The notes under the pieces are model-generated. The model worked only from the letters and a program-made list of their open reading frames with translations. It had not been told where the DNA came from and ran no database searches. A stretch of DNA of 58,544 nt, filler included, from Stramenopiles sp. TOSAG23-6 (taxonomy: Eukaryota), in the NCBI GenBank assembly GCA_900128565.1. It is 19 parts of 19 records of this genome, joined end to end, with 100 filler letters (N's around TTAATTAATTAA, not from the genome) between each part and the next. Parts side by side here need not be neighbours in the genome. Positions count along the whole stretch, not along the records: positions 36,642 to 43,884 come from LT636590.1; 18 more parts are not named here. One strand, given 5' to 3'. Shown piece after piece: positions 1,127 through 43,984 of the stretch. Position numbers and translations under genes: made by a program. Each line of letters opens with the position of its first letter. Positions within the stretch are counted from its first letter, which is position 1.

Positions 1127-2070
1127 TGTAGAAAATGATTACACGTCAAGGCAGGAATAATTGCAACACCTTTATCTGAGCTAGTCACCGCAGCAACAAC
1201 AGTTATTTTACGAAGTTTGTTTTTGTCATCCAATCGTAATTCTAGATTCGAAAGTTGACCAATTTCATTTGGAATTGAACCGGATAGTTGGTTACGATTC
1301 AATCTCAATTCTTCAAGCTTCGTTAGTTGACCAATCTCAGTTGGTATTGAACCAGATAGGTTGTTGTTGTCCAAGTATAATTTTTTGACATGACCATTAT
1401 CATCACACGAGACACCATACCAATTACAAACGTCATCATCCGATAACCAACCAGAATTATTCGTCCAATTTTTTCCATTAGTTGCCTCATACAACTGAAT
1501 TAAAACATCTTTTTCCTTCACTCTCTGACATGTAGGATATATATTTGTAGAATCATGAAGCTCGGCAGCTACATAACAAAAGGTTACATTTCCACAAAGT
1601 TCATCATGAGTAAGTGATGTACAAAGTTTGTTATTGCTCAACCACAATGAATCAAGCTTTGTTAGTTGACCAATTTCTTTTGGAATTAAACCAGATAGAT
1701 CGTTGTTGTACAAGTACAATTGTTTAAGATTTGTTAGTTGACCAATTTCTTTTGGAATTAAACCAGATAGTTCGTTGTTTGACAAGTACAAATTTACGAG
1801 CTTTGTTAGTCGACCAATTACAACAGGTATTTCACCCGATAGATTGTTATCTGGCAATTTTAACTTCATAATTGAGTCTCCATTACAAATTACACCATAC
1901 CATTCGCAGACATCTTTCGTTTTCTTCCAATTTCTTCTTTCTTTCCAATTCTCTCCGCCAGTTGCGTCATAAAACTCTTCTAAAGCTTTTTTCATTTGTT
2001 CGTCAGGTACTGCTCTACCTGTAGTACAATAAGTAGTAAACACCAGCAACAGCACAAGTAATCTTGTCAT
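1127..2070 (-). CDS. Secreted/surface leucine-rich repeat protein (plant-type LRR, two LRRNT-capped blocks), 3' partial
   Basis: Signal peptide MTRLLVLLLVF; two AL..FY.AT.G.NW...W....CxWYGVxC caps; LxLxxNxLSGxIPxEIGxLxxL repeats. Confidence 0.85.
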
Positions 2071-2317
2071 TGTATTGTAAAAATCAAATTTTAACAAATA
2101 ATATATAAACAACACAAGACCTCGGATTAAACCTAATTTGCTACCTCTATTNNNNNNNNNNNNNNNNNNNNNNNNNNNNNNNNNNNNNNNNNNNNTTAAT
2201 TAATTAANNNNNNNNNNNNNNNNNNNNNNNNNNNNNNNNNNNNNNNNNNNNTTAGGTACAAAATTTCGTATGAAAAAAAAAATCGATTTTTTTGTAAAAA
2301 AAAAAAATAAAACATAC

Positions 2318-2880
2318 AGTACATACGTTGCATCAGCATATTGATTTGCCCAAGTCATTAAGTAATAACAAGTGATGGACATGATCATAATCCAATACAG
2401 TAAGGGTAATATGGCAGACTCAGGAACACCCCAAACTGAACACGAACAACGAAAATCTCCACAAACATGTATTGTGAAAAAAAAAAATTAAATTCGAAAT
2501 TAAAAAAAATTCGGACAAACAAAACGAATAGAGCTAGGATTCAAATTCATAACTACACCAACAAGACATACAAATACCGTAGCAAACATATACGACCAAC
2601 CAACAACAGTTGAAGAAGGATATCGTCGAAGTAATATCTTGGAAATAACTACAAAGACTGCTGTTCCAAGGCAATTTACAAAAAAACATAAATTACCAAG
2701 AATTTCGTCCAAAGGATTTTTTGCTATCAGACTTTGTCGAAATGTAACCATAAAAATACCACCCAATAGTGCTAGAGAAACTCCAAATGCCTTTAGTAGC
2801 GTCCCTTTCTCCCAGCCTAGTATAATTGTTATCACCATGACCAATATTGGCTGACTCGGTTGCCAGGCTGAACCGTATAC
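2318..2880 (-). CDS. EamA/DMT family drug-metabolite transporter, internal fragment (2 exons)
   Basis: Multiple TM helices; ILGWEK...K..GV.LA..G, GNL...N.L..A...V..K.LL.RYP and YYLMTWAN motifs; intron 2467-2520 restores IRF|VCGD... Confidence 0.75.
2467..2520 (-). mobile_element. Short GT-AT intron (degenerate repeat-intron copy)
   Basis: GTTTGT...TTTTCACAATACAT; contains an in-frame TAA; removal joins the transporter exons; lacks the branch motif. Confidence 0.55.
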
Positions 2881-2885
2881 TCTAT

Positions 2886-3276
2886 ACAATATGTCAATCG
2901 TATTTGAAATAAATAAATATTGTTATCATCTAAAAGCAAACATCATTCATCTTTTGAATAAAAACAAAAATACTGACAATAATGTGTACAATATGTCAAT
3001 AGTATTTGAAATAAATAAATATTGTTATCATCTAAAAGCAAACATCATTCATTGTTTGAATAAAAGCAAAAATACAAGCAATAATCTGTACAATATGTCA
3101 ATAGTATTTGAAATTAATAACAATTGCTATCCTTTAAAGCTAAAATCATTCATTGTTTGAATAAAAACAAAAATACAAACAATAATATGTACAATATGTC
3201 AATAGTATTTGAAATAAATAAACATTTTTATCATTCTAAAGCAAACATCATTCATTGTTTGAATAAAAACAAAAAT
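2886..3276. repeat. Tandem satellite, ~102-bp unit, ~4 copies
   Basis: ACAATATGTCAAT recurs at 2886, 2988, 3090, 3191. Confidence 0.9.
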
Positions 3277-3493
3277 NNNNNNNNNNNNNNNNNNNNNNNN
3301 NNNNNNNNNNNNNNNNNNNNTTAATTAATTAANNNNNNNNNNNNNNNNNNNNNNNNNNNNNNNNNNNNNNNNNNNNAAAAAAAAAAAAAAAATGTAAAAT
3401 TTTTAAGGTAAAAAATTCCGTACAAAAACAAAAAAAAAAAAAATAAATTTTAAAATTTGAAATTCGAAATTTAAAAAAATAAAAAAAACATAC

Positions 3494-6848: not shown

Positions 6849-7413
6849 ATGTCGCACTGCTGGACCAACAAGAAAAAGTCCTGGAGTTATACTACTTTCA
6901 TCAGAGTTTGTTAGGAATGGGGAGCGTTTTGCGCAATTATCGTTTTTGTTGTCTTCTTTTTCATCAACAAAATTGTCTTCTTTTTCATCCACAAAATTGT
7001 CTTCTTTTTCATCAACAAAATTGTCTTCTTTTTCATCAACAAAATCATCATCTAGAATTTCTATATCAATAATCTCTTTACTCACAATGTCATTGTCACT
7101 ATCTTCATCTTCTTTAGGTTGACCCCATTCAAACAAATCTTTGACAACACCTAAGCGAACACTTCCTTCGAAACCGGCACATAGAATGTATTTTGGAAAA
7201 ATATTTCAAAAAAAATCTAAAAAAAACTTGTTAGGTACAAAATTTCGTACGAAAAAAAAATTCGATTTTTTTTTTACCGGAAAAAATAATAAAACATACA
7301 TGGGTTGTTGTTGTGTATATAAAGTGATCTCTTCATCAACTTTTGATGTATTGTCACTCATAATTACATCTGGCACTTGTTCTCTGTATTTACCATTAGA
7401 AATCTTCTTCTTT

Positions 7414-14499: not shown

Positions 14500-14654
14500 N
14501 NNNNNNNNNNNNNNNNNNNNNNNNNNNNNNNNNNNNNNNNNNNTTAATTAATTAANNNNNNNNNNNNNNNNNNNNNNNNNNNNNNNNNNNNNNNNNNNNC
14601 GTACGTAATTTTGTACCTAACGATTTTTTTTTGAAATATTTTTCCAAAATACAT

Positions 14655-36541: not shown

Positions 36542-36707
36542 NNNNNNNNNNNNNNNNNNNNNNNNNNNNNNNNNNNNNNNNNNNNTTAATTAATTAANNN
36601 NNNNNNNNNNNNNNNNNNNNNNNNNNNNNNNNNNNNNNNNNAATTTATTTTTCGTACGAAATTTTGTACCTAACGATTTTTTTTTTAAATATTTTTCCAA
36701 ACAATAT

Positions 36708-37201
36708 GATCCGAAAGGTTTGTACATACGCAGATGGTGTCCTGAGCTTCGTGACAAATCTGACTCTCAAATACATGAACGATACACAACAATTACTACA
36801 GTTGGACTTCCAGGTATTTTAAATTTATATTTTTTCAATTTCAAATTTATTTTTATAGTTGGACTTCCAGATATTTTAAATTTATATTTTTTCAATTTCA
36901 AATTTATTTTTATTTGTACATCATCATCCAAATGTAGTAAATATTTTGACTAATATACCTAACAAAAAAATTTAAATGTGACATATTTATCAAAAATATA
37001 TGAATACCACCTTTGGAATCAAAATGGAATCCTCAAAGTTCAAAACGTTCTAAAAGTTCGAAACGTTCAAAGAAGGGTAAAAACACGTGGATCCAGAGGC
37101 GNGATGCTGTAAATGTCGGTACTTCAATGAAAAGCGAAGTGACTCAGCAGAGGAATAACCGCGGCAAACCAAGGCGTAGAAAAGTTCAAGGTGCTTGGTG
37201 A
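36708..37201 (+). CDS. DNA photolyase/cryptochrome family, C-terminal exons; GT-AT intron 36814-37001
   Basis: DPKGLYIRRWCPELR......IHE FAD-binding domain motif. Confidence 0.8.
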
Positions 37202-37378
37202 GTCATTGTTTTTGAATAAATAAAGAAATAAATTGTTAATGATTAAAAATGAAATTTCCAACGGTGGCAGTTATAAAATGTCATTTTTCCAAAAATTCGA
37301 ATTGCTTCGAATTGTATTGTTTTTTCATATGTAGATTGGTAGTNCTTATGCCAGTACCATTTCCTCCACAGCCTGTCG

Positions 37379-38029
37379 ATGGCCGACGGGGAACGCCAGC
37401 TTGATGAATCAAATGCTGAGGTTAAATACGACCGTTCGGTCTTTGACAGACATGACTACTGGTCCGGAGCTGGTTACGATCCTCCTGGCGAGACGAGATT
37501 GAGCGATGGTACTAGGCACCCCTTGATTCAAGCACTACGNAATGCCTTGATCCCGCACCTTGATGAGGACGACTTTAGAGGGCCATACGGTGATAACGGG
37601 CCCGTGACTCCAGAATTCTTCAACATTTTTGCANCAAAAGAGCTTTCAAGTCTGATTATGGGTGATGATTGGCTCCAAGATTCTCAAAGACGGNGCCTCG
37701 TCAGTAGTGGTGGCAGAGGCGGCGACATCGGCATTGGTGGCGGAGATGGCGATGGAATTGATACCTCGATGTTTCCCAGNGGCAACAGTGAAGAGTTATT
37801 CGAGATCTTCGATCAGCTCAAGCCGGAGCACATGAGCGATTGGTTTGAAGACATCGAAAGTGCCGCTGCCATCCAAGCGCTCACACTGCTCAATGGTGCC
37901 AAGTCNGGCGNGGCATTCACTTACGTTCGTTACATCAAAAATACTGGCAACCACTACAGCATTGGGGTCGGTGTAGTTGACAGCGGTGGTTGGGTGGTGG
38001 GTTTTAGAGCTTGTCCCGTGATGTTTTGA
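37379..38029 (+). CDS. Hypothetical intronless protein, visibly more GC-rich than its neighbours
   Basis: 216-aa ORF ATG..TGA; no family recognised. Confidence 0.6.
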   Translation: MADGERQLDESNAEVKYDRSVFDRHDYWSGAGYDPPGETRLSDGTRHPLIQALXNALIPHLDEDDFRGPYGDNGPVTPEFFNIFAXKELSSLIMGDDWLQDSQRRXLVSSGGRGGDIGIGGGDGDGIDTSMFPXGNSEELFEIFDQLKPEHMSDWFEDIESAAAIQALTLLNGAKXGXAFTYVRYIKNTGNHYSIGVGVVDSGGWVVGFRACPVMF

Positions 38030-38480
38030 TAATAGTACTGTGTCCTGCTGTATTACATATCGTTGCCTGTGCGATTTCTGATATGTAAAGTATCCAATTC
38101 ATCTCTTTACAATCTNTACAATCTGTACTGAAGATCCAATTCATCTCTTTTCTCTTTACAATTTTTCAAAGCAACCTTAGCTCTAATAGATGCGGTATTG
38201 ATTATAGTGAATATTGGGGAAACGGATGAATGAAATATAAAAAAATGATTCAATAGTTCAAAATAAATAAGAAATGATTCAATGTGTAGTTCAATATCAA
38301 TAGTTATTATTCTACAAATACGTAGTCAAGTAATTTCACAATATATGTTGTGCATTTTCCCACAGAGATCTGTAATGATAAAAACTGAAAGAGATAATTT
38401 GTATCAATAAATAATGCGATATTTTTATTAATGCATTCATTATACAATTTTTTACATAAATTATTCTTCANAATTTATGA

Positions 38481-38987
38481 TCAATAAGAGTCCGAAGANT
38501 CACCCGAAAAGATCGCCGCGTCATCTGTCCACCATTCACCGTTTATATGTTTCTCGATAGCATCGTTTGCGAGCTGATCGGCCTTCCAATTCTGGTTTCG
38601 TCCAATATGCTTATATGACACATCATCTATCTGTAACCTTTGAATTAAGTCAATTGCGTTTTCATACAAGTNTCTGATATTTTCACTTCTAACTTGGTAG
38701 ACCCCGTCCAATTGNTTGATAGCAATCTCAGAGTCACCTCTAATATAAAGTNTATCCGCATATAANGAATTTTCATCAAAGTATTCTAAACCAGATATCA
38801 ATCCTTGGTACTCTGCTTGATTATTTGAAACATCATAACCTAGATACTTTTGACCACTTGCAATTTTATCCGAAACACTGCCGTTAACGTCCATTTCATA
38901 GAGAGTCCAACCACAGCCAGCAGGCCCACGAGGGTTATTCCTTGAAGCACCGTCAAAAGAAAGAATAACTCGGGAGTAGTATGGCAT
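38481..38987 (-). CDS. Ribonuclease HI (archaeal/retroelement-like RNase H subtype)
   Basis: FDGASRNNP.GPAGCG, NNQAEYQGLI.GL, I.GDS, HI.R..N..ADQLAN.A; the acidic catalytic residues are present. Confidence 0.9.
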   Translation of the reverse strand: MPYYSRVILSFDGASRNNPRGPAGCGWTLYEMDVNGSVSDKIASGQKYLGYDVSNNQAEYQGLISGLEYFDENXLYADXLYIRGDSEIAIXQLDGVYQVRSENIRXLYENAIDLIQRLQIDDVSYKHIGRNQNWKADQLANDAIEKHINGEWWTDDAAIFSGXSSDSY

Positions 38988-39214
38988 GATAATAGTTTTA
39001 TAAGGTTGTTATAGTGTGTTTGTAGTCATTCAACAGTCCGAATGACCGACTTCGAATTCATTTTTTTTTTCATTCATCGGCGTTTTTACGTTTTTTTCAT
39101 CATGATCCGTTACTTTCTCAATTATTAAAAATTCGCACATGCCATGAAGGCAGCGGAAATTGTATCAAGATTTCGAGATTGTGAAGGAAAAGTTTCAACA
39201 AACAATCTACAGTG

Positions 39215-40503
39215 ATGAGACATTTCATTCTTATATGTTTTATTCTGGCGATTTCATGCAATGCTGCACATGCTTCAGCAGCTATGGACGTTGATGGCGC
39301 TACTGACGGCAGAGATAAAAAGAGAAAAAGACGACGCACTCACGACTCCACACAAGAAGAAAGTGTACCAAGTCCCTCAAAAAGACACCGTGGCACCTGG
39401 AACCTTGGCGAACTTTATCTCCCTGAAGCAGATTTTCCAGATTTTCTTCCATTTATACCATCTCCGCACAATCACTGCTCCAACTGTCCCTTTTATGTGC
39501 TTAACATACACACAGGCTGGTACGTACACCATTTTTGCACCTTTTGACTTTAAATTCATCATCATATATTTTAGCCTTTGTAACTAAACTTGTATTTCTT
39601 GATGACACATGACTCTTTTTAAACAGGCGAAGCGATGGCGGCTATGCTAACCCAGATATTGGTCAACGCAAAGCAGAATTCGTCAGACTACTTGGGAAGT
39701 GGCAGGCAGATGCAACCAGACGTCTGGGCATATTGCAACAGAGTCCGGTATACCGAATGTATCATAACAGCGGTAGTGGCGGTAGTGGTTTCAGAGGACT
39801 TGATGCACGTGTCATGGCTGATTTTGATTTTGTCTACACATCACTCCAACAAATAGACAATTTCGTTGGTGATGTGTCTGTACAGCATATAGACACGCTG
39901 AACAGGCATGGATATGTATTGTATCAAACAAAGGATAATGCACCTCTAGCAATGAGCTGGGTTTGTCCTCCTTCACCAGGTGATGAGGATGGTGTTATGT
40001 ATGTCTCATTTCTCGCAACCAAACCGGAAAATATTCAGCCACGGGAGTTTCATTTTGTGGATGGTGTGTTCAAAATACTAACAACACAAGAAAGATATGG
40101 TCAAACTATTCGAACTGATCGTTTTGGCATTGGAGGAAAACCACAAAAAGGTGGTGGTTCCACTTTACTAACTTTTCTACTTGGTGCAGCACTTGGTTAT
40201 ACATCCCCAGATCTAGAAACTTCAACGAGTCTTCGCCTTCAGTCAGCGACGATTTGGTCAAGTAAATTTTACTTCAGATTTGGTTTGCAAGGATCATATG
40301 AAGATTTCGATGAGAATGCATTTCTTATCACCGGAATAGATCAGCTTACAAATGCACATGATGAAGGAACTGTCTATTTTGAATGTGATGGGCATGACAG
40401 CATGAAACGATTGATTGAAGGGCATCATGAAGAAGCAGTTCAAATATTTGGAAAGGACTTCTATTTACATTATATTGAGCCTATACCACTACTCTCTATA
40501 TAG
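39215..40503 (+). CDS. GNAT-fold protein with a signal peptide and basic NLS-like motif; canonical intron 39520-39626
   Basis: GTACGT...AAACAG joins ORFs 39212 and 39733; YVSFLATKP, QKGGGSTLL and FYFRFG resemble GNAT motifs A/B. Confidence 0.55.
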
Positions 40504-40613
40504 AAAGAAGGAGACNANAAAAATATAAAAGAAATATCATTCGTATCATTTTTATCATAATATTAAGAAATAAGTGAAGATGGTAGTACTATNGTATGCC
40601 AATAAAACATGTT

Positions 40614-41600
40614 TTAGAAAGCCATTTTATGGTCAGCATCAACTTGTTTCAGATTATCTTTGATACCTAGCTTTTTTCTTGCCTCATCGACAGTGCAAGC
40701 CCGACCACCGAGCTCTTCAATGATCCTGATAGCCTTCTTAACTAAGCCACCATTTGTTGCAAATACACCTTTTGATTCATATAAATTATCTTCNAGTCCG
40801 ACACGTACATGACCCCCAAGTAACATTGTCTGTGCAACCATTGGCATTTGCCACCGAGAAATTCCAAATGCTGCCCAGTTTGCACCTTCTGGTAAGTTAT
40901 CTTTCATGGCAGTGATAGCAGAGGCAGTAGCGGGAGCACCCCAAGGAATACCTAATGCAAATTGATAGAAAGGTGGACTCGACAAAAGTCCCTCTTTATA
41001 AAGTTGTGTTGCCATACCAACATGACCCATTTCGTAGCACTCTAACTCAGGTTTCACACCAATTTCAGTCATTCTTTTTGCCATTTTGCGTAAAGTATCT
41101 GCAGTTGAAATGTATACTCCAGAACCAAAATTTAAGGAACCACAATCTAAAGAACAAATATCAGGCTTCAAAACTTCAATATGTTCCATACGAGCTTCCC
41201 ATCCAGCCAAATCACTACCTGGGCCTGCTTGTGATGGGTTTGATTCATCAAAGTAAAAATCACCCCCCATTCCACAAGTAATATTAATGAGTACATCTGT
41301 TGGATGCTCGCGGATTCGTTCTACTACTTCCGTATATAATGCAAGATCTCGGGAAGGTTTCCCGGTTTTTGGATCGCGCACGTGAAAATGTGCAACAGCA
41401 GCTCCAGCCTCTGCAGCTTCAATGCAAGCGTCAGCTATTTCTTTTGGGGTCACTGGAATCGCGGGATGTATTCCTACTGTGTCACCACTTCCAGTCACTG
41501 CACAGCAAATCATGACTTCTTGATTTATCGCCATACCAGTATATGATCGCACGTTGGAACGTACACATCTCCGAACACTTCTGGCAATAGAAGGTAACAT
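40614..41600 (-). CDS. BKACE/DUF849 beta-keto acid cleavage enzyme, CdhC-like (3-dehydrocarnitine cleavage), with a mitochondrial-type presequence
   Basis: I.CAVTG.GDT....PVTP..IA....EAA.AGA...[57 protein letters not shown]. Confidence 0.9.
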
Positions 41601-41962
41601 ATTGAGAAAATTACTAAATCGCAATTTCAAATTGTATAATAGCAACTTTGATGATCACCTAGCCTACTGGAGAGAAGAAGACTCTTTCTTTATGGGTCAA
41701 AACGGGTTTGTTGTTGTTGAATACGTTGAATATGTTGATGCTATGTTGATTGTGAATTTGTGACCAGTGGATTCAAAGGGATTCAAATTTCTTTTTCGCT
41801 TTTATGGTACCGGGAATCATTTTTTTTTTTNGAGANTTTCGNAAATTAAAAATTGTTTTGAATTTGAAATCGAATCCTAGCTATACGTACTAGATCGAAT
41901 ATCAGATCTACATCTACAATTAAAAGTTAGAGAGAAATATAANTTGAATTTCGTCAAGCAAA

Positions 41963-42648
41963 ATGCATCGTCCTGTGCTGTATACAACGATTCTAATTGT
42001 ACATCACTTAATAGGCTTAATAGTAGACTCTACAGCATTGTCNGTTNTGTCGTCGCCCAAGCGGTTTCACATAAATGAAATATTTGGTGTACATATTGAC
42101 GAAAGTTGCATGGTNGAGCAGCTATCAGCAGCAAAAGCTTGCGCTCCCGGGAAAGATGGTTCTGATTGCAACAAATGTGTACAATTTCTTGGTTTTTGTA
42201 AAAGTGGCTCTCCAAAATTTCATGTTAAACCAGATTGTATGTACGTTTCCATGATACATTTCAAATAGTTTTTTATCGTACGAAATTCCGTANCTAACAT
42301 TTTTTTCTAAAATACTTTTTCAAAATACATGAGGGACTGTTTAGTATCCCACACTAGTTGCAGTGCATGTGTGAAAGTCTACTCCAAGTGTAGTTTCGGT
42401 ATGGGCTTACATGGAGATAAAGTCAAAGAGATAAATAATGAAACCAAAATGGATCAATATATGTCTGTTTTATTTTTTTTTTTAACAAAAAAATCGATTT
42501 TTTTTCATACGAAATTTTGTACCTAACAAATTTAATTTTTTTTTTTAAATATTTTTCCAAATATATGATGTCTAAAGTCGTTAATCAAATGAATTCAAGT
42601 ATTCCTTCAACTTGGCCATTAAGTATGGATGATTTTGACCAACTTTAG
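41963..42648 (+). CDS. Small secreted cysteine-rich protein (3 exons; GT-AT introns 42241-42330 and 42463-42566)
   Basis: Hydrophobic N-terminus, many Cys; removing both introns gives one frame (DCM|RDC, QYM|MSK) to TAG at 42648. Confidence 0.6.
42241..42330 (+). mobile_element. GT-AT repeat intron (90 nt)
   Basis: AT|GTACGTTT...TCGTACGAAATTCCGTANCTAAC...CAAAATACAT|G. Confidence 0.75.
42463..42566 (+). mobile_element. GT-AT repeat intron (104 nt)
   Basis: AT|GTCTGTTTT...TACGAAATTTTGTACCTAAC...TTCCAAATATAT|G. Confidence 0.75.
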
Positions 42649-42916
42649 CATTTCAACTACTTGGTCTTTAACTTCAACACATTAAAANTTTAATGTAACA
42701 NAAGTATGATATTTTTTTTCTNATAAAATCTCAAATTAATTAGGAAAAAAATATAGTTCATTGAAATTGTACAAAAAAAACGCAAAAAAGTATTTTTTTT
42801 TTCAAATCAGTCAAAAATGACCAATCAAGCGCGCAATATACTTGACATATCAATATCAATACCTACTCGAATACCTATAGCTATACCTTTTTTCTTTTGA
42901 CCACAAGAGAGTATTA

Positions 42917-43831
42917 ATGTTTGTTAGAGCAACCAATGTGGGGAGAAGAAATCGATTCTTTGATCGTATAAAAACATGTCGTGCATCTTCTAACACCACA
43001 AATAGTAAAAAAGGTGTAGATCTCTCCTTTGCCAAGACTGCTCCAACTAATGTTCGAAAAGTAGCATGTCTTGGTACAGGTGTAATTGGGGGTGGTTGGG
43101 TTTGTGACTTTCTTCGAAATGGCCTCGAAGTAACGGCGTATGATCCATCACCAGGCGCAGAGGAAAATATGTTGCGTATGGTAGATAAAACATGGCCTAT
43201 TTTAGAAAAACTTGGGTTGAAAGATGGGGCATCACCAAATAACCTCAAAATCTTTACAGATCCACCTGGATGGACCGGAAAAAGTAATGCACTCGCGGAA
43301 GCGCTTGATGGTGTTGACTGTGTACAAGAGAGTGTACCGGAAAATTTGGAGGTGAAACGAAAGTGTTTTAAAATCGTTGATGAATTGTTGCCATCGAACG
43401 TTCCTGTTTTATCAAGTATTTCAGGGTCTTACTTTTTAGCCGATCTCCAGTCCGCATGTGAGAGTAACCCCGAGCGCTTCACTGTAGCTCATCCGTTTAA
43501 TCCTCCATATTTGATTCCACTTGTTGAGATTGTTGGATCTGAAATTACGAATCCATCAGTCATTGAGTGGGCATTTCAGTTTTATAGTTCGATTGGCAAA
43601 TTTCCGTTAGCTTGCTCTCAAGAAAATCCCGGATATGTCGGTAATCGACTGCAAGATGTACTTACAGGTAACTCTTTCATGAATTTGAATTTTTTTTTCA
43701 CTATGAAATTTTGTACCTAACATTTTTTTTTCTTTTGAAATTTTACAATACATGCGCTGTGGCGTGAAGCCTTGCACATGCTTGTCTCTGGTGAAGCTAC
43801 ATTTGAAGAAATTGATGCAGCCATTGTATAT
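42917..43831 (+). CDS. L-carnitine 3-dehydrogenase-like (CdhA/LcdH; 3-hydroxyacyl-CoA dehydrogenase family) with presequence, 3' partial
   Basis: LGTGVIGGGW, YDPSPGAE, WP.LEK.GL..GAS, QESVPE...K, HPFNP.YL.PLVE.VG, PGYVGNRLQD|ALWREALHM. Confidence 0.85.
43658..43753 (+). mobile_element. GT-AT repeat intron (96 nt, in-frame stop inside)
   Basis: GAT|GTACTT...AAATTTTGTACCTAAC...TACAATACAT|GCG; restores NRLQDALWREALH exactly. Confidence 0.9.
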
Positions 43832-43984
43832 GTATGTTTTATTTTTTTTTTAAACAAAAAAATCGAATTTATTTTTCGTACGAANNNNNNNNNNNNNNNN
43901 NNNNNNNNNNNNNNNNNNNNNNNNNNNNTTAATTAATTAANNNNNNNNNNNNNNNNNNNNNNNNNNNNNNNNNNNNNNNNNNNN

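Follow-up and report, generated by a model that had tools for sequence, protein, structure and literature searches.

Can a eukaryote keep, side by side in its nuclear genome, two bacterial enzymes that act one after the other on carnitine? Carnitine and glycine betaine are abundant, nitrogen-rich osmolytes of the sea, where their turnover is ascribed to bacteria. Here, we describe a gene pair of Stramenopiles sp. [quoted passage not shown] Judging from the sequences, we think it somewhat probable that these nuclear genes, from a marine protist of stramenopile-like kind, code for carnitine enzymes of bacterial type that would act in sequence in the mitochondrion. A CdhA-like, NAD+-dependent dehydrogenase would convert L-carnitine to 3-dehydrocarnitine, a CdhC-like, zinc-dependent BKACE would convert 3-dehydrocarnitine and acetyl-coenzyme A (acetyl-CoA) to acetoacetate and betainyl-CoA, and a thioesterase encoded elsewhere would release glycine betaine from betainyl-CoA. 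Carnitine as the substrate, the direction of flux, the mitochondrial location and co-transfer of the two genes are points that we infer from the comparisons below. The enzymes and the pathway are already known from bacteria, and eukaryotic BKACE records already stand in databases under automatic names. The available text of two sources gives the route by which carnitine, through 3-dehydrocarnitine and then betainyl-CoA, becomes glycine betaine (PMC5806209, PMC12482172), and that of the NetSyn preprint gives one eukaryotic genome with a BKACE in the 2014 data set of the family (10.1101/2023.02.15.528638). No description of a eukaryotic carnitine dehydrogenase/BKACE pair, of its clustering or of its targeting was found in the literature searched, the scope of which excluded most subscription journals.

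The window is an artificial string of contigs (about 1 kb each up to position 14543, about 7.2 kb each beyond) joined by 18 linkers, counted as N44-TTAATTAATTAA-N44, so that neighbourhood across a linker is meaningless. Both genes lie within the single contig 36642-43884 (7243 bases) and only isolated Ns separate them, so they do stand on one contig. The BKACE gene is on the minus strand and the dehydrogenase gene on the plus strand, with start codons at 41600 and 42917 and a spacer of 1316 nt (41601-42916, G+C content 0.31) between them. An earlier note on this DNA had described a CdhC-like and a CdhA-like gene arranged divergently on one contig, about 1.3 kb apart and with a small gene between, and this arrangement is confirmed.

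The BKACE gene (40614-41600, minus strand) is a single intact, intron-free open reading frame (ORF) with coding sequence at 40617-41600 and stop codon at 40614-40616, encoding 328 residues. Its product matches Pfam family PF05853 (BKACE, formerly DUF849) with 313.3 bits against a cut-off of 24.8, over residues 29-313 and profile positions 2-274 of 274, a full-length match. It agrees with 84 of the 88 columns that are at least 95% conserved in 180 bacterial-type rows, and H71 and H73 (of H-x-H) and E270 and D271 (E-D of G-L-E-D-N) sit in such columns; we take these four residues to be the zinc-binding and catalytic positions of Kce. Among 120 listed matches, the best are P0001 (81% identity), P0003 (74%) and P0002 (73%), the remaining 117 being 59-65% identical except for the chimera-like P0007 at 52%; the best solved relative of P0001 is 3c6c (293.7 bits). 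Named matches are alphaproteobacterial (Kiloniellales, Methylovirgula, Labrys) or carry the JGI name 3-dehydrocarnitine:acetyl-CoA trimethylamine transferase, two of the latter at 63-64% identity. The BKACEs of bacterial loci L046 and L048 are 62-64% identical to that of the window, and their neighbours score 519 and 497 bits on the NCBIfam model for L-carnitine dehydrogenase, NF005471. The dehydrocarnitine-cleaving BKACE (CdhC) is reportedly group G5 of Bastard et al. 2014.

The dehydrogenase gene (plus strand) comprises exon 1 (42917-43657, 247 codons from the ATG at 42917), exon 2 (43754-43831, 26 codons, placed by alignment to the relative P0122) and the first 53 nt of a second intron (43832-43884, beginning GTATGT), which runs to the end of the contig. 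Exon 1 matches 3HCDH_N with 115.1 bits, and its top NCBIfam model is NF005471 with 144.3 bits, PRK06129 following only 1.5 bits behind at 142.8; for the full-length P0122 the same two models score 273.4 and 208 bits. The protein agrees with 47 of 49 highly conserved columns, including G53/G55/G58, presumably the G-x-G-x-x-G motif that binds NAD, and H192 and E204, which we take to be the catalytic His and Glu of the 3-hydroxyacyl-CoA dehydrogenase fold. Exon 1 is 100% identical to P0121, the source's own gene model (eukprot: GSMAST32.ASY1.ANO1.758.1), and its nearest listed match after that is P0122 at 56% identity. Further listed matches are 44-51% identical, most of them named carnitine 3-dehydrogenase by JGI, which is an automatic annotation, and those with NCBI names are mostly from Actinomycetota.

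The earlier note had also raised the possibility that the dehydrogenase groups with lambda-crystallin/CRYL1, a protein with which it has the 3-hydroxyacyl-CoA-dehydrogenase fold family in common. The nearest solved structures to exon 1 are indeed a pyridoxine-pathway dehydrogenase (92.9 bits) and the lambda-crystallins 3ado and 3f3s (90.0 and 87.7 bits), far below the 191-229 bits obtained with the listed carnitine-dehydrogenase-type relatives, and P0122 likewise scores 124 bits against lambda-crystallin and at least 317 bits against its sequence relatives. Orthology with CRYL1, from which the window protein is much more distant than from carnitine-dehydrogenase-type proteins, was rejected on these bit scores against PDB chains, the trees described below having been built without CRYL1 or Pseudomonas aeruginosa CdhA and CdhC.

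Intron 1 (43658-43753, plus strand, 96 nt) begins with GT, ends with AT and carries a copy of a genome-wide intron motif at 43713. Exact excision of 43658-43753 restores NRLQD-ALWREALHML, letter for letter as in P0122, which reads ...NRLQDALWREALHML... across the exon junction, the same string as that of the window without these bases, and recovers the conserved columns A248, W250, R251 and E252. As AT precedes GT here, splicing in an AT..AC register would yield an mRNA identical to that from GT..AT. The public model P0121 uses a GT..AG intron instead, by our reading 43668-43769, which gives NRLQDVLT-ALHML; this replaces ALWRE by VLT and loses A248, W250, R251 and E252, columns at least 95% conserved in 160 relatives. 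GT..AT introns thus mislead gene callers that expect AG, and such callers will get genes of this genome wrong. The introns belong to a look-alike family of about 100 nt that starts with GTAYGT, contains an internal ...CGTACGAAATTTTGTACCTAAC... core and mostly ends in ...ACAT, with copies for example at 7238, 11103, 15514, 16292, 25667, 42519 and 43713. Its 11-mer motif has 53 matches at two or fewer mismatches, where 16.6 are expected by chance and none of 100 shuffles reaches 53, and its 9-base core occurs in 23 exact copies across many independent contigs of the window. Several contigs, including that of the gene pair, break within copies of the family, which indicates that these repeats break the assembly. 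A poly(A) RNA contig of 241 nt (X7 record 20) matches 43790-43832 and then diverges exactly at the predicted border of exon 2 and intron 2, and many RNA joints at 43721-43832 stem from the repeated family. The earlier note had spoken of GT-AT introns in the dehydrogenase gene; one complete intron was found, and of a second only the 53 nt before the contig end. Nothing relevant on GT-AT introns in this group was found in the literature searched.

Both proteins begin with extensions that have no counterpart in bacterial homologues. Residues 1-22 of the BKACE (41535-41600, minus strand) form a presequence-like stretch that contains 5 Arg and 4 Ser but neither Asp nor Glu, and residue 25 aligns to residue 1 of the bacterial homologue. 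The extension ends in R-S-Y-T-G, and R-S-Y-T-G or R-A-Y-T-G also stands in P0001, P0002 and the ORF of L001; this R-x-Y-T-G resembles a mitochondrial processing site of the R-3 type. The Arg-rich extensions of P0040 and P0113 are different and do not have the look of a signal peptide. The dehydrogenase has about 44 residues ahead of the point at which bacterial homologues start, of which 6 are Arg, 4 are Lys, 4 are Ser, 6 are Thr and 2 are Asp, and its relative P0260 has an extension rich in Arg, Ser and Ala. The Arg/Ser-rich N-terminal extensions that the earlier note had reported for both enzymes are therefore present, and like presequences they are basic, contain few acidic residues and are conserved in the eukaryotic relatives. 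No recognised peroxisomal motif was found at the C-terminus of the window BKACE or of P0001. Together, the Arg-rich extensions, R-x-Y-T-G and the lack of a recognised peroxisomal end make the mitochondrial matrix the best reading for the location of both enzymes, on the basis of composition and a conserved motif.

Both genes are integrated in a eukaryotic genome, as the earlier note had held for the dehydrogenase gene on account of its introns. At third codon positions the G+C content (GC3) of the BKACE gene, 0.28, and that of dehydrogenase exon 1, 0.30, match the 0.29 of the neighbouring ORF at 39613-40503; the dehydrogenase carries an intron of the host family; and the presequence-like extensions are conserved. 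Genes with introns of this family lie on one side of the BKACE gene, and the contig itself starts inside an intron copy. Exon 1 is matched, with one difference at most, by poly(A) metatranscriptome contigs of two studies (X7 records 16 and 17; X8 record 24), and a seawater metagenome contig of a further study (X2 record 8, 1216 nt) covers 42723-43731. This comparison covered 42723-43884 only; DNA may occur in RNA libraries, and the contigs show presence and not level. Ordinary eukaryotic genes are found on the window's other contigs (RRP5, ankyrin and LRR proteins, PI-PLC, a Ras-type GTPase and an MSP domain).

The DNA around bacterial relatives of the BKACE was compared, a BKACE gene being counted as adjacent if a homologue of the dehydrogenase gene lay no more than 300 nt away in the same orientation. 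Of the 47 bacterial loci flanked by 1 kb or more on each side, 28 have such a neighbour, as do 40 of 67 distinct loci overall; these counts, and named plasmids that agree, support the operon partnership of the bacterial homologues, which the earlier note had given for P. aeruginosa. On a Caballeronia plasmid (M1242, plasmid unnamed2) a GlxA-family regulator beside a choline-type substrate-binding protein is followed by a BKACE, an L-carnitine dehydrogenase and a thioesterase, a layout that the available text of two sources also gives for P. aeruginosa caiX-cdhCAB (PMC5806209; PMC12482172). The Caballeronia BKACE is 61% identical to that of the window; the dehydrogenases are 39% identical and belong to different clades. 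This cdhCAB-type operon has both enzyme families, and would have the reaction order, in common with the window pair. Unlike its members, the window genes are nuclear, divergent, not co-transcribed and separated by another gene, they have introns and N-terminal extensions, and no thioesterase, binding protein or regulator lies near them.

Actinobacterial-type modules (Citricoccus sp. SGAir0253 and Streptomyces plasmids), known here from their genes alone, have the order BKACE, dehydrogenase, thioesterase, and their dehydrogenases belong to the clade of the window enzyme; their BKACEs are less similar to that of the window (51-58% identity) than proteobacterial ones. P0122 is 50-52% identical to the products of the Streptomyces and Citricoccus dehydrogenase genes. 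The Citricoccus plasmid module consists of a TetR regulator, BKACE, window-clade dehydrogenase, thioesterase and ABC importer, and dehydrogenases of this clade stand beside a BKACE also in L019, L049, L080, L081 and L087 (L019 is the same as L076, of genome G402, and no statement rests on that row alone). Some bacterial loci show further features: the Citricoccus module (L086, 5209-14782) ends with four ABC importer genes and a serine hydrolase, L047 (genome G177, 1180-3326) has two BKACE paralogues in tandem, and in L085, the plasmid pW43B of the marine roseobacter Parasedimentitalea marina, a GlxA-family regulator lies between the BKACE and a window-type dehydrogenase, with a carnitinyl-CoA dehydratase and an acyl-CoA dehydrogenase adjoining the region.

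For the careful tree of the BKACE, 56 rows were picked from the 94 of a quick tree; the 120 listed matches had been thinned beforehand at 78% identity to 20 representatives, a few named or related rows were added, and P0007 (410 residues, internal repeat) was left out. The window protein falls with P0001, P0002, P0003, P0040, P0113 and P0245, all of them extension-bearing, in one clade (support 100/99). P0113 and P0245 belong to a cluster that holds NCBI records of Aureococcus anophagefferens named beta-keto acid cleavage enzyme; this BKACE, at 59% identity to that of the window and with an Arg-rich extension in the representative, lies in a different sub-clade, together with P0040. Sister to the eukaryotic clade is P0105 (97/90), which has no extension, and next come the nearest bacterial rows sampled, L062, L063, L064 and L068 (80/80), of which L063, L064 and L068 have dehydrogenase neighbours scoring 448.9, 471.4 and 449.4 bits on NF005471 against its cut-off of 414. 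In the quick tree L005 and L020 stood next to the eukaryotic clade; these long-branched rows moved away in the careful tree, and their earlier placement was rejected as long-branch attraction. A scan of metagenomes for loci of the eukaryotic relatives gave only L001, a transcript-like contig of 1055 nt, besides bacterial loci.

For the dehydrogenase, 60 rows were picked from 99 for the careful tree. The window protein pairs (100/100) with P0260, a full-length, GC-rich member of the P0122 cluster with an Arg-rich extension, and this pair is joined by three unnamed proteins (99/81) within the second major clade, where the members that carry names are mostly actinobacterial. In these trees both proteins are bacterial in type and nest inside bacterial radiations. 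Because the BKACE shares its clade with other extension-bearing proteins, including that of A. anophagefferens, the acquisition is old: it predates this lineage and, for the BKACE, is common at least to a pelagophyte. The genes would derive from bacterial carnitine-catabolic modules and would have been gained before the split from eukaryotes with the same extension-bearing versions; after acquisition they would have gained presequences, host-type introns and host base composition, and would have stayed or become divergent neighbours. Of the earlier note's horizontally acquired operon fragment, the bacterial type of both proteins and the operon partnership of their homologues hold up, an acquisition by this genome alone does not, and co-transfer is not established.

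Several observations weigh against two enzymes of one imported carnitine pathway. The dehydrogenase gene is cut off by the contig end at 43884, so that about 100 C-terminal residues are missing relative to the 351 residues of P0122. The equivalog cut-off of NF005471 (414 bits) is missed by the 247-residue fragment (144.3) and by P0122 (273.4); it is reached by 9 of 84 scanned rows, none of them in the clade of the window dehydrogenase, which lies outside the clade (100/96) holding all eight rows above the cut-off that the tree included. No RNA contig joining 43657 to 43754 is among the matches listed for 42723-43884. The physical linkage of the two genes is that of this assembly, and the metagenome contig aligned here spans only intron 1 back to about 42530. 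No adjacent dehydrogenase was found for 19 of the 47 bacterial BKACEs with flank, often with just 1.5 kb of flank covered, and relative L020 adjoins a class-III aminotransferase instead. The CdhB-like thioesterase for which the earlier note had proposed a search was likewise not found, with no CdhB or 4HBT domain among the 38 ORFs scanned in the 58 kb of the window, and P0260 has no fused thioesterase domain. Among 40 distinct adjacent bacterial pairs compared, none is the best match for both window genes (identity to the window BKACE/dehydrogenase 64.4/45.2% for L048, 60.6/47.8% for L049, 58.5/49.1% for L081 and 54.3/52.9% for L087 of Streptomyces sp. BHT-5-2), and the two trees put the eukaryotic genes beside different kinds of bacterial partner.

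These last points bear most directly on how the genes arrived. Arrival of the two genes from bacteria in separate transfers, after which they became neighbours in the eukaryote, is quite possible, if on the whole somewhat unlikely. The nearest bacterial rows to the BKACE have dehydrogenase partners of the curated type, with the window dehydrogenase in the other clade; by identity, proteobacterial pairs come nearest for the BKACE (up to 64%) and actinobacterial-type pairs for the dehydrogenase (up to 53%); and the divergent arrangement with a gene between is unlike any bacterial locus examined. Yet L049 and L081 are single operons that combine a BKACE of about 60% identity with a window-clade dehydrogenase, and in both trees support for the deep branches is weak. 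With one operon, L049, uniting both types, neither one donor nor two is established, and arrival together or separately is a near even choice. In our judgement, two operon partners are very unlikely to lie by chance no more than 3.3 kb apart in the DNA of a eukaryote, and chance clustering at this distance of pathway partners acquired independently would be improbable without selection, which counts against two separate transfers.

The same chemistry on another beta-hydroxy acid, for example another betaine-type or an amino beta-hydroxy acid, is in our view unlikely. It would be in keeping with a dehydrogenase that falls, with its whole clade, below the curated cut-off and outside the clade of the rows above it, with the near tie of NF005471 and PRK06129 on exon 1, with the different neighbour of L020, and with a multi-substrate BKACE family of seven active-site groups, as given in the available text of the NetSyn preprint (10.1101/2023.02.15.528638). 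It fits less well with a window BKACE that is 61-64% identical to BKACEs beside carnitine dehydrogenases of curated level, with members of the dehydrogenase clade in BKACE-dehydrogenase-thioesterase modules ordered as in cdhCAB, and with the JGI name, automatic though it is, carnitine 3-dehydrogenase on most of the listed relatives. Carnitine is a likely but unproven substrate, since the dehydrogenase falls outside the clade of curated L-carnitine dehydrogenases.

With carnitine as the substrate, the pair might also run in reverse, betainyl-CoA and acetoacetate giving 3-dehydrocarnitine and then L-carnitine, so that carnitine would be made from glycine betaine. According to the available text of a field study, fully labelled carnitine was obtained from labelled glycine betaine in Pacific communities, and both carnitine dehydrogenase and BKACE could in principle work in either direction (PMC9321204). 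The thioesterase, the step that makes catabolism irreversible, was moreover not found on the contig or among the 38 ORFs of the window. Its absence carries little weight, as the search was confined to 58 kb of the genome; a betaine-CoA ligase, which the reverse route requires, was not seen either, and all characterised uses of the pair in the available text of two sources are catabolic (PMC5806209, PMC12482172). We regard a biosynthetic role as very improbable and keep to conversion of carnitine towards glycine betaine. Bacterial contamination or a chimeric contig of the single-cell assembly, which an intron-free BKACE gene and the greatest similarity of both proteins to bacterial ones might suggest, deserves next to no credence in view of GC3 values that equal the neighbouring ORF's, introns of the host family in the dehydrogenase and the intervening gene, N-terminal extensions common to relatives that include the NCBI Aureococcus protein cluster, and exon 1 sequences in poly(A) RNA libraries and in the metagenome of another study.

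If the pair works as read here, some heterotrophic and photosynthetic protists could process carnitine in the direction of glycine betaine and acetoacetate, or in the opposite one, and the accounting of sinks and sources of both compounds in the sea would change. The wider proposition, that some marine protists, including a pelagophyte, run a mitochondrial carnitine/glycine-betaine interconversion module of bacterial origin, is speculative and in our estimate quite improbable. Run forwards, such a module would make these protists eukaryotic consumers of carnitine, a consumption that the available text of PMC5806209 denies for animals. In the reverse direction, it would be a path, so far unrecognised, by which eukaryotes make carnitine out of glycine betaine, and could explain the labelled carnitine found at sea (PMC9321204, available text). 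For genome evolution, the locus would be a case of two bacterial operon partners surviving as eukaryotic neighbours after gaining presequences and introns.

Between the two genes lies a small putative gene with three exons (41963-42240, 42331-42462 and 42567-42648, plus strand), predicted from ORFs and sequence, with a Cys-rich product and a hydrophobic N-terminus. Its two introns, within 41963-42648, belong to the repeated GT..AT family, with motif copies at 42293 and 42519, and its exon 1 has no Pfam match. On the other side of the BKACE gene and convergent with it is the ORF at 39613-40503 (plus strand, 296 residues), the GC3 of which is host-like; no Pfam family matched it, and a protein atlas gave only weak leads for 39613-40500, to DUF2686 at 0.94 (159 shared features) and to a viral GNAT cluster at 0.91. 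The same contig carries an RNase H-like ORF (38484-39008, minus strand, RVT_3 with 50.5 bits) and, adjoining it, an ORF at 37343-38029 (plus strand) without a Pfam family and with a GC3 of 0.54, unusually high for this genome. Elsewhere in the window, two contigs of about 1 kb (regions 8850 and 9972, minus strand) are identical across the 170 bases shown around an intron copy and may be an assembly duplicate.

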